DNA of 58,460 nucleotides from Escherichia phage SHIN8. How positions within the stretch are numbered: the stretch's first letter is position 1; every line of letters starts with the position of its first letter. Positions 22,440-40,181 of this stretch are shown here, piece after piece. The position numbers and the translations under genes were made by a program. The DNA lies in sequence record PP627280.1, one strand, 5' to 3'. The notes beneath the pieces are model-generated. The model saw only the letters and a program-made list of their open reading frames with translations, was not told the origin of the DNA and made no database searches.

Positions 22440-24425
22440 TTAGGCGTATCCCATGTCTTCGAGATACTTCTCTGCTTTAGCTATATAAGCATCATAATCT
22501 ATGTCGTCCGGTATTTTATCCGGTAGCGTCATAATCGGGACACCTCCCGCGCTACCAGCTACACGGTTGCCCGAGTTAGCATAGATTATTTCAGGTGTTT
22601 CTTCATTAGTGCTTAAGTACCAGCGTACAACCTTACCCAAAAATTCGCCATTCCATACCGCGCCGCCTTTTACCGCACGTAGGATAATGAATTTTCTAAT
22701 ATCGTTGCAATTGCGTATAGTACGAGAAACAGGCGTACCGTGGGCCAAACATTCACATACAGATTCCATAATGATCTCACCAGTACAGTTCTTTTGAAGA
22801 CCTGTCTTTGCGAACCACCCTTTACGTTTAATTTCAACATTTCCTTCCTCGTCAGGTTCTTTTACTGCAACATAGTTATTGACGTTAGCGCTGTACAGCT
22901 TGTCATAGTAGTTGGACTCCATTTCAAAGCCTGTCACGGATTCCCACCACTTGATCATATTATCAACGAAGTCCTGCATATGGTCCGGATACTTAACCAC
23001 AATACCATCCGTGTTCGCTGAAATTACTTTAACACCGTTCAGCTCAAACGCTTCAATAAGCATCAACAGTGAAAGCTGTCCAGTTAATGTAACTTGTATC
23101 AATAATTGGGGCGCGTACAGTACGGACCACATAGACCCCAACTTACCGAACGATCCGTTGATGACGATCTTCAGCGTGTTGGCTGTGTTTTTGTCTCCGC
23201 TGTGCTTAGCTGCAATACGGCGGTCTACAATACTTTTATAAACACGAAGGAACGCTGGTCCCAACTGTTCTGGATATAAGCCCTGATTAAGAATGATTGA
23301 AGGATAATAAGACGTTACGTCAATGTCCCGCTTTTTGATACCAGGCTCTTTACCGTGGCCAGCACACTCTTCGGAGCTATGTAAACCACCAATACCCATA
23401 CGGTAGACACCGTCTGCAATCTTGATCTCAAGACCTGTTAATGCTGGAGGTAAGCTGACACCACCGTTATCGCTAACAATAAAGCGACAGTCCCGAACAA
23501 TATCCAGAACACTATTCATCAAAGGTGTTTGAAAACGAATAAAGTCCGGTATGTTGTATGCATACTTTGTTCCAGGATAAACTTGCGGACGCTGTGGGCG
23601 CACGCCCGTTAACGCTTGGATTTCGTGCTTAATCACGTCTTCTGCAATCTGTGCATCGGAGCGTGAACGTAGATCCACACCGTATTCTTGCGACATAATT
23701 TCACGCAAGTGAATAGGCTCTTGCAATGCAATAAAACATTCTTCTGTTTGTACAAGGTCGTTAATACAGTACCAGCGTACAATTAACATCTGGTCCTGCG
23801 TTAACATGGTATTGGGTTTGAACGGTAAATCCTGCATACGTCGAGTATGTACACGTCCGCCGTATTGTTTCAAACCGCCGGACCCAGGCAGCACTTCCAT
23901 GATATCAATGTGGTTAACGTTCTGCATACGCTTGAGACGGTAACTTTTCAATACATCCGAAGGACGCCAGTCTTCAACGATTATCTTATCGGTCGCGTCT
24001 TTAAGCTGCGCATTAGAACAGCCGTTAAGCGCAAGCGTAGCAATGGGCATATCGTACCCGTTACCGTTAAAGCTCACGATAAGGAAGTTTGTCATCACCC
24101 AGTTAAGTAATAAGCAATTCAAACTACAACCGTGATACATCTCGAAGTAGACAACTTTCTTAGTTCGCACTCCGCGAAATGCAATTAAGAAATAATTTGG
24201 ATAACATTCTATATCATATACAAGCGGTTCGCGGTTAATCCATGCTTGAATAAGTTCGTCCTGTGTGTACAGGTTGTATTGGAAGTTCCGCGCTTCCTCA
24301 AGATTAGGCAAATAATCCGGGCGCTCCCAAGTGCGCTCCGGCGGTAAACGTTTAACCTTTTCTTTCTTTGCTTTTGGCTCAGGCGGTAAGTCCTGCCAAA
24401 AGAAACCTATAGCATCGGTTCGCAT
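22440..24425 (-). CDS. DNA polymerase, family B-like with 3'-5' exonuclease
   Basis: 661 aa; exo motif YDIECYPNYF; DVTSYYPSI (motif A-like), KIVINGSFGKLG, ANTDGIVV. Confidence 0.75.
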   Translation of the reverse strand: MRTDAIGFFWQDLPPEPKAKKEKVKRLPPERTWERPDYLPNLEEARNFQYNLYTQDELIQAWINREPLVYDIECYPNYFLIAFRGVRTKKVVYFEMYHGCSLNCLLLNWVMTNFLIVSFNGNGYDMPIATLALNGCSNAQLKDATDKIIVEDWRPSDVLKSYRLKRMQNVNHIDIMEVLPGSGGLKQYGGRVHTRRMQDLPFKPNTMLTQDQMLIVRWYCINDLVQTEECFIALQEPIHLREIMSQEYGVDLRSRSDAQIAEDVIKHEIQALTGVRPQRPQVYPGTKYAYNIPDFIRFQTPLMNSVLDIVRDCRFIVSDNGGVSLPPALTGLEIKIADGVYRMGIGGLHSSEECAGHGKEPGIKKRDIDVTSYYPSIILNQGLYPEQLGPAFLRVYKSIVDRRIAAKHSGDKNTANTLKIVINGSFGKLGSMWSVLYAPQLLIQVTLTGQLSLLMLIEAFELNGVKVISANTDGIVVKYPDHMQDFVDNMIKWWESVTGFEMESNYYDKLYSANVNNYVAVKEPDEEGNVEIKRKGWFAKTGLQKNCTGEIIMESVCECLAHGTPVSRTIRNCNDIRKFIILRAVKGGAVWNGEFLGKVVRWYLSTNEETPEIIYANSGNRVAGSAGGVPIMTLPDKIPDDIDYDAYIAKAEKYLEDMGYA

Positions 24426-24996
24426 TTAATCCGCTCCATTGCTTCTTTAATTGCTAGAATCATATGGTCATAACGACTAACACCACTACCGTCGCAAGTA
24501 TGTGCGCCAAGTACGTGAAATTTAGCAAAACGCTCAGGTCCGTTTACACGTCCAATATGAACATGCTTATTATTTTCCAATCCCCATAAAACAATATCCG
24601 CAGCATGTTCAGAATCTTTAAACTCCGTAGTTCCGCCAATAAAGATACAATCCGCTTCATTTGGAATACTATCACAACCATCCTGGGCTACAAATGCTTT
24701 CTTCCAACCGTCTGCTAGATGGTTGTATTGCCCCACATTTCAAGAGTAGTTTTATGATCCCCAACTTTATCCGGAACGCAGACAAATAAGCATTGGTCTT
24801 TAACATGATATTCTCGTTTAAGAAGAGAAATAAACTCTTTCTCACGAAACCCGCTGTATGCGCCGTTATCAATTGCAAATACAGGTTCACCGCGAGTATA
24901 TCTGGTCAATGGTGTTAATAATTGCCCAACAACGCCTTCCGGCCATTGGGTCTTACGGAAAGCTATACGGTCACGATGCCCGTCAATCAAAAATTT
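24407..24996 (-). pseudogene. hypothetical gene split by single-base frameshift at a C4/G4 run
   Basis: track ORFs 24715-25053 and 24407-24736 are contiguous; adding one G at 24731-24734 gives one ~196-aa ORF (..TTLEMWGQYNHLADGWKK..). Confidence 0.4.
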
Positions 24997-24998
24997 CA

Positions 24999-25952
24999 TT
25001 AGACACGTTCTCCAATTAACACACCGCGAAGATTTTCCCCAAAGAATGCGCAAGGTTGCGGATATAAACTAAAGTCCGCAGTCTTAACCACATTTTCGAG
25101 TAATAACAGGATGTCGATATTGTAAACTCCCGTTATTGATCTGTCCTGCAATACGAAGCTTGCACCTTCTGCATCATCGTAATGAGTACGCGCTAGACCG
25201 TTTTCAATATATACGCGAGGACGATCTTCCGCAAAAGGTTTAATTTTATGCAAGCCCTCAAAAAGACCTGGATCAACAGGATGTGCATTACATTGAACAT
25301 TTAAAATACGACGTATATCAGGCCACTCCGCATCAATAAGCTGTGTTCGCAACCAGCGACCTTCCGGATAATGAAACGTCACATTGTTCTTGCTAACCTG
25401 AATATGTGTCGGGTTAGCTTTAATGCGCAGTATTTCTTTAATAGCAACAGACGGTATTATGCAGTCAATAGGGAATTGATTACCAAACCAATATTCCGCA
25501 ATGGTGACGTTATTTGTAGCAAACAGGCTACCGTTATTAATCAGAATACCGCAAGCCCACGGGCGGGACGCATCCGAGCCTACAAACGGAGCAACAGACT
25601 TCACACCGTGTACGAAGCGAGCACCGTCTATTTCGTATAAATCGCCTTCAGGGAATACGTGAGGTGTTTCCTTGTCAATACAGCGTATAGCAACACGAAA
25701 CGGTCCGGACTTGATATTAAGTTTACCGTTAGCCATCATTGTTAACTGTACGGTTTCGTCACAGTTTGAAATAGCTTTAATCATAAGCCCAGCTTCGGGT
25801 TTGCAATCAATATCCAGCTCAATAGGGCTACCCAGTGCAATAACACCGTTAAAGCCCTGTACCTGTCCATCACGGATAAGAAAGCTGGTAAGCCCTTCTA
25901 CCAGTTCCTTTCGAGCGACGGAGCCTTGAACAAATTTAAGAGCGTCTAACAT
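24999..25952 (-). CDS. sliding clamp (DnaN/beta-clamp-like)
   Basis: 317 aa; DAEWPDIRRILN resembles the DnaN DGRFPDYRRVLP segment. Confidence 0.5.
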   Translation of the reverse strand: MLDALKFVQGSVARKELVEGLTSFLIRDGQVQGFNGVIALGSPIELDIDCKPEAGLMIKAISNCDETVQLTMMANGKLNIKSGPFRVAIRCIDKETPHVFPEGDLYEIDGARFVHGVKSVAPFVGSDASRPWACGILINNGSLFATNNVTIAEYWFGNQFPIDCIIPSVAIKEILRIKANPTHIQVSKNNVTFHYPEGRWLRTQLIDAEWPDIRRILNVQCNAHPVDPGLFEGLHKIKPFAEDRPRVYIENGLARTHYDDAEGASFVLQDRSITGVYNIDILLLLENVVKTADFSLYPQPCAFFGENLRGVLIGERV

Positions 25953-26179
25953 TAGCGATCCTCGATTGCTCTAATTGTGGTTAAATCTAATTCGCAGGTT
26001 GGAGGGTATCCATAAAGTCCCATTTGTTTTCCTTGTGCATTAAACCATGTACCTGACGGATCCTGCCATTGCTTAGGTGTCTTGTGGAGAAATACTACTC
26101 TGTTTTCACCGTAATAATTAATTCTTACGCCTGTGTGAGTATATTTACGTTTACCTTTTGGTCTTCTTAAGTTAGCCAT
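25952..26179 (-). CDS. hypothetical protein
   Basis: 75 aa, basic. Confidence 0.35.
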   Translation of the reverse strand: MANLRRPKGKRKYTHTGVRINYYGENRVVFLHKTPKQWQDPSGTWFNAQGKQMGLYGYPPTCELDLTTIRAIEDR

Positions 26180-27099
26180 CAGAACAACTCCATTACACGA
26201 TCACGGAATGTGCCGTCATGGGTGGCGTTAATGTTTGCAGCAATTACACCATACGCCCATAAGTTGAAGGCAGCACGTGATTCATAGATTGTTGATAAAC
26301 GTTCGTAAGTGAAACCGTTTTGCTCAAGGTATTTAAGGACAGCGTCTTGTTCAATTTCAGTTAATGTTGAAACATGCTTACCAAAATGATGACGGTCCGG
26401 TGACTTATCTGAAACGCGCATTAGTCCCCACGGAGGGGTAACCACACTTCCAAACGCTGCCGCTTGTATCCAGGAGGATGAGTCGCAGCTATACCACGGG
26501 TAACGTTCCATAATGGTTGTGGACGTAATACCAAACGCATGAAGTTTAATCTTAGCACGTCCGCTACCGTCGCAAATGTATTTGTCCCACATGCGGTCAA
26601 GCCAAGTCTTAAGCGTGTCCGTGGAACGCCCTACCATGCCACCGATAGTGATATATTCGTAGTTCTTCATGTAGTATTCAAGATAGCGGAAGTCCTCCCC
26701 AAAGTGAAAGCAAGGTAACGGTTTAGCACCGCGTGCTTCCATTTCAAGTTGGTTACGGTAGGTTTGCAACGGATCACCGATACCATCGAGCACCGACGCC
26801 ATTACTGCGCCATCTTCTACGCGAAGGATGTCTTTGTTGCGCTTGATGTATTCGCAGTATTCAACAATATCAATGTGAGCACCTAACGAGTGCGCGGAGA
26901 ATGCACCGGAGTCGAGAAACACTTTAGCCCCGTCCGCACGCATTTGATCAACATACTTCTGACGCCCAACGTAGTGGTAGGATTCCAAAATATTTGGAAG
27001 GCTATTAACAATGTCTTTTTCCCGATCGTTTAACTTTTCATATCGTTGTTGACCAGCTTTATAGCCGTTGGTATATACCGCAGCGACAAACAGATGCAT
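26179..27099 (-). CDS. dpdA: DNA-guanine transglycosylase (TGT-like, DpdA-type)
   Basis: 306 aa; VFLDSGAFSAH TGT-type motif; adjacent to preQ0 synthesis genes. Confidence 0.7.
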   Translation of the reverse strand: MHLFVAAVYTNGYKAGQQRYEKLNDREKDIVNSLPNILESYHYVGRQKYVDQMRADGAKVFLDSGAFSAHSLGAHIDIVEYCEYIKRNKDILRVEDGAVMASVLDGIGDPLQTYRNQLEMEARGAKPLPCFHFGEDFRYLEYYMKNYEYITIGGMVGRSTDTLKTWLDRMWDKYICDGSGRAKIKLHAFGITSTTIMERYPWYSCDSSSWIQAAAFGSVVTPPWGLMRVSDKSPDRHHFGKHVSTLTEIEQDAVLKYLEQNGFTYERLSTIYESRAAFNLWAYGVIAANINATHDGTFRDRVMELF

Positions 27100-27656
27100 T
27101 ATTCCACCTCAAATTTATTACGCTTAGATCTGTTTTCTTCAATAGATAAGTATTGTAGGTTACTAAGGACGTGAAGTCCACTGACTCTTTTACCGCAAAG
27201 AGGTATAATATGATCAACCTCCATCCCATCCGGGCAGTTAGCGTAGAACAATTCAATTTGTTCTTTTTCAGACCACGCAGGGATTCTTAAAGACCTTTTC
27301 TTATGCACTTCAAGGGAATGTAACCTTGATCTAGCTTTACCGTAATCTGTCTTAGCCCAGCGTTTCAGCCTTTCTTTATTTTGTTCTTTACCTTTCTCAG
27401 TAGAATTATAAGCAGCTTTTGAACGTTGAAGGGCTTCTTTTCCTTTCTGTGACTTATGGTATCTCTTAATAGCATTCCTTGCAGCTTCTGTTTTATTGTA
27501 AATACGCATTCTTTTCTTTCGTGCTTCTCTGTCACAAGTAATACAATAGCCATCTACAGTCTTTCTTTCAGAAACATGACCTTTCGCACAAGGCTTACCA
27601 GTAAAATAATATTTCAAACCTCTTTCTTTTGCTTCAGCTCTTGTGATAATTTCCAT
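27099..27656 (-). CDS. HNH homing endonuclease
   Basis: 185 aa; C-terminal DHIIPL...N...N HNH motif; Cys pairs; AT-rich codon usage. Confidence 0.65.
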   Translation of the reverse strand: MEIITRAEAKERGLKYYFTGKPCAKGHVSERKTVDGYCITCDREARKKRMRIYNKTEAARNAIKRYHKSQKGKEALQRSKAAYNSTEKGKEQNKERLKRWAKTDYGKARSRLHSLEVHKKRSLRIPAWSEKEQIELFYANCPDGMEVDHIIPLCGKRVSGLHVLSNLQYLSIEENRSKRNKFEVE

Positions 27657-29178: not shown

Positions 29179-29753
29179 TTAATCACCTCTTTAGATTGTT
29201 CAATTTCTAACGCACGCTGTGCGGACGCAATAATGTCTTTCAAATCTTCTAACAGATTTTTATGACCGCGTTCGCCCGGCTGCAACGCTTTTTTGATTAA
29301 ATGCTGCAAAGCTGGGTTAGTTGTCTTCCAAGCTTCCAAGACATCATACACATCCACGATACACTTTACAACATTTCCGTTTTGATCTTTACCACGAATA
29401 ACTTTCTGATATTTATTCATGGGAATTTTAGATGGTTTGTATTTCGTAAAAACTGCACCATTAAATGTATTACTTATGCTTGTTTCAGAAGCTTGATGGT
29501 ACAATCCGGAGCGAGTGTTTTCGCTAGCTTGTTTGACGTAATCATCCGCAACAATATAACGCCAAGATATAACTGAATCCTTTTCTAACGGTATTACATT
29601 ATCGCAGGATTTTTTATACCAATCCCATCCTTGCTTATGGTTCTTCTTAATAGATCCATTAGCTAATTGAACTTCAAATTGCTCATTCTGAAGAAAAATA
29701 GGCATTCCTTTTCCATCATGTTTGTGCCAAATTTTATTCAAATTATCTTTCAT
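29175..29753 (-). CDS. hypothetical protein embedded in deazaguanine cluster
   Basis: track ORF trimmed to ATG 29753; Lys/Asn-rich, AT-rich. Confidence 0.4.
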   Translation of the reverse strand: MKDNLNKIWHKHDGKGMPIFLQNEQFEVQLANGSIKKNHKQGWDWYKKSCDNVIPLEKDSVISWRYIVADDYVKQASENTRSGLYHQASETSISNTFNGAVFTKYKPSKIPMNKYQKVIRGKDQNGNVVKCIVDVYDVLEAWKTTNPALQHLIKKALQPGERGHKNLLEDLKDIIASAQRALEIEQSKEVIK

Positions 29754-38353: not shown

Positions 38354-39280
38354 TTAATCTAAAGCCTGATCACTTTCATCGCGGAAATGCATAAAGTTTG
38401 CAAAACGCGGTTTATCTTTCACGCCATGAGGGAAGTGTTTATATGAAATAGTCCGACCTTTAATTTTGTCAGGGTTATTCCAATAATAAATCTTATCCTC
38501 TTGCGTTAGTTTACCAGGACTAACGTTGATTGTATTGCCCGTCTTAACGTCTTTACAAACCAACGTCCCGATCATACCGTTAGGAACTTTATTTTCCTGA
38601 TGCGAAGATCGTGTAGTCCTGCCCAGCTCGTTAACAGTAGCTTCATTAAGGTTAGTTTCACCCTCAATAATATCAAGGACAATAGCATCTTCCTGAATAA
38701 AGCGTTTAATACGAAGATATCCACCTTCACGAACTGTGCCGCGCCCATGTTTATAAGGCTTGTCAGGATCACGGATAATAATACCTTCATAACCCATATC
38801 AAGCCAGATGTTTTCCCAGTAGAGCAGCTCTTGTAAAGACTTAACCACACGCATCTCTACCACTTTCAGGTCGAACAATTCACCCTTCGCGTGCTGTGTG
38901 GTTATAAAGTCTTTCATCATGTTGTAGCGAGCTTCATACCCAAGCTCTGCTACACTTTCCGCGCACAGATCAAAGATGTGCCATATTAGCAACGGTTCAC
39001 CTTCAATTGTATTTACCGCACTGGTTGTTTTACGACACAGGTCAGGATCTGTTTCCAACCCTGCTGCAAGTTCACCGTCATAGCCCATGTACTGGGGACC
39101 GCTGAAAATTGCGCTTGTATGGCGGTTTTTAAACAGCTTTAAGCTTCGCCCTACTATCTGCCCGTCCGGATTTAAACCGCGTACACCGTCGATTTTAGGC
39201 AGTATACAGCACGGAAACTTAATCTTTTCTTCAACCGCGTCAGTCGCTAAATGTGGTTTAAATGCCATTGTTAACCTCAT
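38354..39280 (-). CDS. ATP-dependent DNA ligase
   Basis: 308 aa; motif I LPKIDGVRG. Confidence 0.7.
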   Translation of the reverse strand: MRLTMAFKPHLATDAVEEKIKFPCCILPKIDGVRGLNPDGQIVGRSLKLFKNRHTSAIFSGPQYMGYDGELAAGLETDPDLCRKTTSAVNTIEGEPLLIWHIFDLCAESVAELGYEARYNMMKDFITTQHAKGELFDLKVVEMRVVKSLQELLYWENIWLDMGYEGIIIRDPDKPYKHGRGTVREGGYLRIKRFIQEDAIVLDIIEGETNLNEATVNELGRTTRSSHQENKVPNGMIGTLVCKDVKTGNTINVSPGKLTQEDKIYYWNNPDKIKGRTISYKHFPHGVKDKPRFANFMHFRDESDQALD

Positions 39281-39899
39281 TCATAATAATCATGTTGATG
39301 AGAACTGCCACGTATACCGCAACGTTCTAAAAGTATTGCAGCTTTTTGAGCTTTCTCTTTCATACGGGTATTACGGCGTAAATGTCCGCTACCCTTTTTA
39401 GGTCTATTTTCCTTTTTCTTTGCTTCGGAAATAAGCTCTTTGCATTCCTGCAAACGGATCTTGCTTCTTTCCAATCGCATAGCAGAACGCGCACGTTCAT
39501 CGCAAAATCTTTGGGCTTTACTACGTTGGTCTTGCGTACTTGTATGACCTTTAACGTGGCGGAACTCAATAGTTAGATTATATTTACGCAATTGATCGTT
39601 CAACCATTTGAAAGCTACACCTTCCTGTTCACTTTTCCAGCTTGCTTCTTTATACACTTTAATAGCTGTTGAACAATCTGTTTGCACAATTAAATGATCG
39701 CCTGGATGGATTAATTTAGCCTTCAATCCCTCCCAAATAACATTACAGATTGCCATTGTTTCAGCTGCATTATTATCAGGAGCTCCACGTAACGGCCCAC
39801 CGTTAGCGTTATTTCCACGGTTGCACACTACCCAGCCACCGTATCCCGCGGCTTTGTATTTGGACAAAAACTTGCATCAGATATAATTGTTACTCTCAT
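39277..39899 (-). pseudogene. ribonuclease H, interrupted by frameshift at an A5/T5 run
   Basis: N-terminal MRVTIISDASF is in another frame from the track ORF (TTG start at 39867); one extra T at 39866-39870 gives continuous ..SDASFLSKYKAAGYGGW..TDC.. Confidence 0.5.
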
Positions 39900-40171: not shown

Positions 40172-40181
40172 TATTCCCCGT

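Follow-up and report, generated by a model that had tools for sequence, protein, structure and literature searches.

A one-base contraction of a G tract splits an accessory barrel-protein gene in the genome sequences of Escherichia phages SHIN8 and phiG7

The genome sequence of Escherichia phage SHIN8, a Seuratvirus (PP627280.1; the window analyzed here is the whole stretch of 58,460 nucleotides), contains two short overlapping reading frames between the genes for a family-B DNA polymerase and a DNA polymerase processivity factor. This raises the question of whether the locus holds two genes or one gene that has lost a base, and, in the latter case, whether the base is missing from the phage DNA or from the assembly alone. 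In GenBank, the two pieces are entered as separate hypothetical proteins, WZL04279.1 and WZL04278.1. A preliminary description, made from the letters of the sequence, proposed that one G added to a run of four would fuse them, and took the break, together with another in the RNase H gene, as suggestive of systematic sequencing error in conserved genes.

All features of the locus lie on the minus strand. The processivity factor (clamp) gene (24999–25952) is the upstream neighbor and the polymerase gene polB (22440–24425) the downstream neighbor, as the preliminary description had placed them. The first frame, ORF1 (24715–24999; WZL04279.1), starts with an ATG at 24999 that overlaps the clamp stop codon as TAATG and is preceded by GGAG 11 nt upstream. 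It reads MKFLIDG...TTLEMWG, corresponding to residues 1–90, followed by four out-of-frame residues, NTTI, and a TAG stop at 24715–24717. The second frame, ORF2 (24407–24736; WZL04278.1), lies in the −1 frame, overlaps ORF1 by 22 nt, and encodes residues 91–197. It opens with a GTG and reads GQYNHLADGWKK...; this GTG, at 24736–24734, is its sole possible start, and no Shine-Dalgarno match was found upstream of it. The lesion itself is a G4 tract at 24731–24734 (CCCC on the plus strand, GGGG on the coding strand), and extension from G4 to G5 fuses ORF1 and ORF2 into a protein of 197 residues. The whole disrupted gene spans 24407–24999 and has 593 nt, one less than the 594 nt of the intact form. 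Of the extent proposed earlier (24407–24996, about 196 residues), the boundary at 24407 stands, but the other end lies at 24999 and the fused protein is one residue longer. The 3′ end of the gene overlaps polB by 19 nt and contains the polB ATG as well as its GGAG. An imperfect hairpin with the stem ACAACCATC / GATGGTTGT (24673–24727) begins 4 nt 3′ of the G run.

The site was read at the DNA level in 15 related contigs from independent samples. Fourteen of these read ATGTGGGGGCAA, with five Gs, and one, a more distant allele (L003), reads GGGCG. Four Gs are found in SHIN8 and in phiG7, the only other deposited and cultured coliphage with the gene. If the missing G is disregarded, the phiG7 gene shows no substitutions relative to the intact copies in three contigs (L013, L014, and L017), and the SHIN8 gene shows a single synonymous substitution relative to those in four others (L004–L007). 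The two broken genes differ from each other by 10 substitutions and belong to separate allele groups. Because they lie on different alleles, each within 0–1 substitutions of an intact G5 form, the contraction arose, or was called, twice independently and very recently. In alleles with an Ala or Glu codon at this position (GGGCG or GGGAG), the G run is missing, and both lesions are on G5-bearing alleles. Deletion of the C in the GGGCG of L003 was considered as the origin of the four-G run and discarded, since closer alleles carry G5. Among the members listed for the 90% protein cluster, those from outside GenBank are all intact (192–197 residues; about 46 contigs by the table), and the exact 109-residue ORF2 product is recorded from SHIN8 and phiG7 alone. 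Exact-pattern scans for the G4 and G5 forms returned nothing from IMG/VR, JGI metagenomes, or GTDB genomes, and complete E. coli genomes and plasmids gave no match.

The fused translation is identical, residue for residue, to P0123, an intact protein from public assemblies, and one continuous match to the phrog_15826 family spans the junction (residues 21–178, E 5e-25). Together with the 14 G5 contigs, these results of the homology search confirm that the two frames are one gene. A word-indexed search with the fused protein gave 564 homologues, and the best 120 of these are nearly all about 190–200 residues long. The family is large, with 2,434 representatives of 50%-identity clusters. The AlphaFold model of an intact, 96%-identical relative (pLDDT 95.8) predicts a minimal eight-stranded β/α TIM barrel, a (β/α)8 fold in which the frameshift, at residue 90, would fall in helix α4 and separate strands β1–β4 from strands β5–β8. 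Invariant positions occur on both sides of the break: the DNG and PD motifs in the first half, and in the second half Gln-106, GG122–123, His-148/Gly-150/Arg-151, and TCDGSG168–173. Across 94 divergent sequences, Asp-44 (in DNG) and Asp-77 are near-invariant (at least 90%), and Asp-170 (in CDGSG) is invariant. Two distant members in the representative library, P0334 and P0304, are N-terminal (residues 1–94 plus an out-of-frame tail) or C-terminal (from residue 88) fragments with a similar mid-barrel break. These are probably contig-end or frameshift noise, as many other fragments break elsewhere.

Several observations point to a remote resemblance of the barrel to DpdA and tRNA-guanine transglycosylase (TGT). 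On inspection by eye, and partly also in hhalign, the motifs around Asp-44, Asp-77, and Asp-170 align in order with the DSG, LDGIGD, and CDSSS motifs of DpdA1. In hhalign against a DpdA1 alignment, the match has a probability of 24.6% and an E of 8e-4 and covers DNGAFS..IGG only, in a sensible motif register. Actinophage homologues found by tblastn (E ~1e-14) are annotated, by annotation only, as "DpdA-like tRNA-guanine transglycosylase," and a Foldseek search of BFVD matched viral "queuine tRNA-ribosyltransferase" proteins with E values of 1e-4 to 1e-2. Structure searches did not separate DpdA/TGT from generic TIM barrels, however, and pyruvate kinase and transaldolase barrels ranked equal to or above them. 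No TGT or DpdA was found in a PDB profile search with the barrel protein, and no Pfam or NCBIfam model matched among 94 diverse family members. Outside its barrel, TGT has a zinc-binding subdomain as well as insertions that bind nucleic acid. Such additions are absent here: the protein stops about 25 residues past the last strand and has no CxCxxC..H motif, and the only invariant cysteine, Cys-169, is invariant solely among close homologues (alignment A4). The SHIN8 gene product is thus described as a putative, unproven DpdA/TGT-like minimal barrel.

Although the preliminary description counted the gene among conserved genes of the replication module, it does not belong to the replication core and is an accessory cassette between the clamp gene and polB. 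The clamp stop codon directly overlaps the polB start in CAjan and Seurat and in about 30 further Seuratvirus records, and the ~574-bp gene is absent there. The gene is dispensable, as seen from the ~30 cultured Seuratviruses that do without it. Between Seuratviruses, it is 4–20 times less diverged than its clamp and polB flanks, with sharp boundaries: SHIN8 and L004 differ by 0.2% in the gene and by 4.1–4.7% in the flanks, and phiG7 and L014 by 0% and 5.0–7.5%, respectively. Low divergence of this kind points to recent spread of the cassette or to mosaic exchange. The gene neighbors in Seuratviruses are FolE, QueD, QueC, QueE, and DpdA1, and the canonical phage DpdA1 of SHIN8, a 7-deazaguanine DNA transglycosylase, is encoded at 26179–27099 (minus strand) in the context of this preQ0 module. 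An intact homologue of 194 residues with 56.6% identity is present in Vibrio phage vB_VpaS_R29Z (L022, 4767–5351), where clamp, barrel gene, and polB follow in the same order beside QueD and FolE. From this synteny, the association of the gene with the 7-deazaguanine and replication module would predate the cassette of the E. coli Seuratviruses. In mycobacteriophage Phegasus, the barrel gene is a singleton. The preQ0 module of SHIN8 also contains, between DpdA1 and FolE, an ORF for a 185-residue HNH-endonuclease-like protein (..EVDHIIPL..NLQYL..EEN..) at 27099–27656 (minus strand), where relatives have an ORF of 68–77 residues instead; this ORF may be a homing-endonuclease insertion.

The missing G could in principle reflect decay, function, mutation, or miscalling. 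Decay had been kept as an alternative in the preliminary description, and an old pseudogene in the SHIN8 lineage would suit an accessory gene that is missing from most relatives. The broken copies, however, fall in different allele groups, are still within one substitution of intact alleles, and contain no further stops or indels in SHIN8 or phiG7 besides the single lesion, which makes long-term decay extremely improbable. The lesion shows neither decay nor a conserved split. A related phage with two separate frames around four Gs, which the preliminary description had reckoned would speak against a single broken gene, does exist in phiG7, but it is misleading in this respect: the phiG7 split sits on a different allele, identical to intact G5 alleles, and represents a recurrent lesion and not a conserved two-gene arrangement. 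The 8 synonymous and 2 nonsynonymous differences between SHIN8 and phiG7 likewise do not count as evidence of purifying selection after the shift, since the lesions are independent and the differences are older than the lesions. The arrangement might nevertheless be functional, with the G tract acting as an on/off contingency switch, or with half-barrels or a low-level −1 frameshift product supplying the activity. G5 and G4 states do both occur among near-identical alleles, the break in helix α4 between β4 and β5 halves the barrel, and half-barrels of some TIM-barrel enzymes can reassemble; a hairpin also lies 4 nt past the G run. Against this, the site (G UGG GGC A) lacks a slippery heptamer X XXY YYZ, the stability of the hairpin equals that of shuffled sequence (z 0.31), and intact alleles have the hairpin too. 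With the frameshift also not conserved, programmed slippage was rejected. The GTG of ORF2 lacks a Shine-Dalgarno match. Apart from the two GenBank isolates, the cluster members listed all have a single ORF, as do all full-length homologues examined. A tract of 5 nt is short for high-frequency phase variation, and the lesions are too young for selection to have shaped a split. We therefore regard a functional arrangement as improbable.

A base-calling or assembly artefact, in which the real DNA has G5, the gene is intact, and one G was under-called beside a modified GGC in both deposits (for example, in native-DNA Nanopore or flow-based sequencing), is a much stronger contender. What has changed is precisely the length of a homopolymer, repair of the lesion gives a known intact protein, and accompanying decay is wholly absent. 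The four-G form occurs only in two submitter-assembled isolate genomes and never in the ~46 Logan/ENA/NCBI assemblies, and a difference in technology would also yield this distribution of G4 and G5. The preQ0-modified motifs of CAjan are GGC, with GA, and preQ0 depresses Nanopore read quality (PMC7544227). Both SHIN8 frameshift sites abut GGC. The second site is in the RNase H gene (39277–39898, minus strand), where SHIN8 reads GGCTTTG and CAjan reads GGCTTTTG. This contraction from A4 to A3 (indel at plus-strand position 39853) cuts off the N-terminal MRVTIISDAS strand with the catalytic Asp. As the preliminary description had noted, it is a second single-base homopolymer frameshift; it is private to SHIN8, as the extra base is present in 15 of the 15 related phage records matched, and it is the only other ORF-internal frameshift in the genome. 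Two real knock-outs in one 58-kb stock would be unusual, and an indel-prone assembly fits them better. The rest of the SHIN8 sequence does not show such a tendency, however. Comparison with CAjan gave the same length for all 20 A/T6 runs, for 79 A/T5 runs, and for 6 G/C5 runs; the few changes in run length include both gains and losses and are located at gene boundaries. Full length is called for each of the 12 G5 runs in SHIN8, three of which have the GGGGGC context. Genome-wide under-calling of homopolymers was rejected on this evidence, and the earlier reading as systematic error is not supported; phiG7, deposited independently, also has the four Gs. In the neighboring genes, the substitutions private to SHIN8 have a natural-looking spectrum (24 synonymous and 3 nonsynonymous), and no other clean ORF-internal frameshift was found in phiG7 relative to CAjan. 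An artefact would also require that two laboratories had made one and the same error at this base, each on a different allele. No sequencing platform was found in the literature for SHIN8 or phiG7. Weighing these points, we consider an artefact a real possibility, although somewhat short of an even chance. Among the boundary changes, a run at 40176 (plus strand), just upstream of the start of a small gene, is C4 in SHIN8, C5 in CAjan, and C6 in phiG7, and further changes in run length occur at 29753, 40973, 44486, and 51897. This variation shows that intergenic homopolymers in these genomes are often naturally polymorphic.

We infer that the contraction is present in the phage DNA and not in the assembly alone, and give about an even chance to a real and recent slippage mutation from G5 to G4 in an accessory gene. 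The natural state of the gene is a G5 tract (TGG GGG CAA), which, according to this slippage model, was contracted to G4 by replication slippage in SHIN8. Translation would then end four codons past the G4 tract, leaving an N-terminal half barrel of 94 residues, and the C-terminal half would be stranded in the −1 frame behind a GTG without a ribosome-binding site, so that the gene is effectively knocked out. In the predicted knock-out, the ~290 nt of RNA that precede polB would be poorly translated. The same contraction would have occurred separately in phiG7 on another allele, with the G5 tract as the probable mutational hot spot of the gene, and loss of the gene may be tolerated or even favored on isolation and propagation with laboratory E. 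coli. Selection in culture would then account for the recurrence. That both cultured carriers are broken and intact copies dominate elsewhere is compatible with loss at a hot spot, driven by culture, or with a reproducible miscall. A stronger form of the slippage model would be counter-selection of the intact gene on laboratory E. coli, which might act through a toxic product, over-modification of DNA, or triggering of a host defense, so that carriers would be recovered in culture only as G5-to-G4 "off" escapers. Such counter-selection would explain why the two cultured carriers share the position of the break whereas the ~46 other assemblies are intact, and also why the gene is missing in ~30 cultured Seuratviruses, but we consider it rather unlikely.

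For annotation, WZL04279.1 and WZL04278.1, and likewise their phiG7 counterparts, are best merged into a single disrupted gene. A real and recurrent lesion would draw attention to an uncharacterized and very widespread family of ~200-residue barrels in the 7-deazaguanine DNA-modification and replication module, against which laboratory culture may select, and might lead to a second DNA-modifying activity or a defense trigger in Queuovirinae. An artefact would add a small caution on indel calls beside preQ0-modified GGC motifs.

Among known systems, the guanine transglycosylases of the DpdA/TGT type (phage DpdA1 of CAjan, bacterial DpdA 7UI4, and DpdA3 of phiST) share with the SHIN8 protein the TIM-barrel fold and, for DpdA1, the motif order D(N/S)GAFS, (P/L)D..GD, IGG, H.(I/F)G, and CD(G/S)S. 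In contrast to these enzymes, the SHIN8 protein is a bare barrel of ~195 residues without extra subdomains. The gene adjoins the preQ0 module both in Seuratviruses and in Vibrio phage R29Z; some carriers of the barrel gene are without 7-deazaguanine genes.

The lesion can be compared with three kinds of frameshift. Programmed −1 frameshifts, such as those of the tail-chaperone G/GT and dnaX type, also involve two overlapping ORFs that are fused by a −1 shift, but the SHIN8 site has no heptamer or significant stimulatory structure, and its relatives all have one ORF. Sequencing errors linked to homopolymers and base modification resemble the lesion in that a single-base run change touches the GGC preQ0 motif and has a second case in the same genome. 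Unlike such cases, the rest of SHIN8 is without under-calling, and the same change is seen in an independently deposited genome. At the SHIN8 site itself, a sequencing error and a slipped-strand mutation would look identical. Classical phase-variable tracts are far longer than the 5-nt tract of SHIN8, and no evidence of reversible switching was found there. As in slipped-strand homopolymer frameshifts of the loss-of-function or contingency type, however, a one-base contraction of a run recurs on independent backgrounds, and both the "on" state, G5, and the "off" state, G4, are seen.
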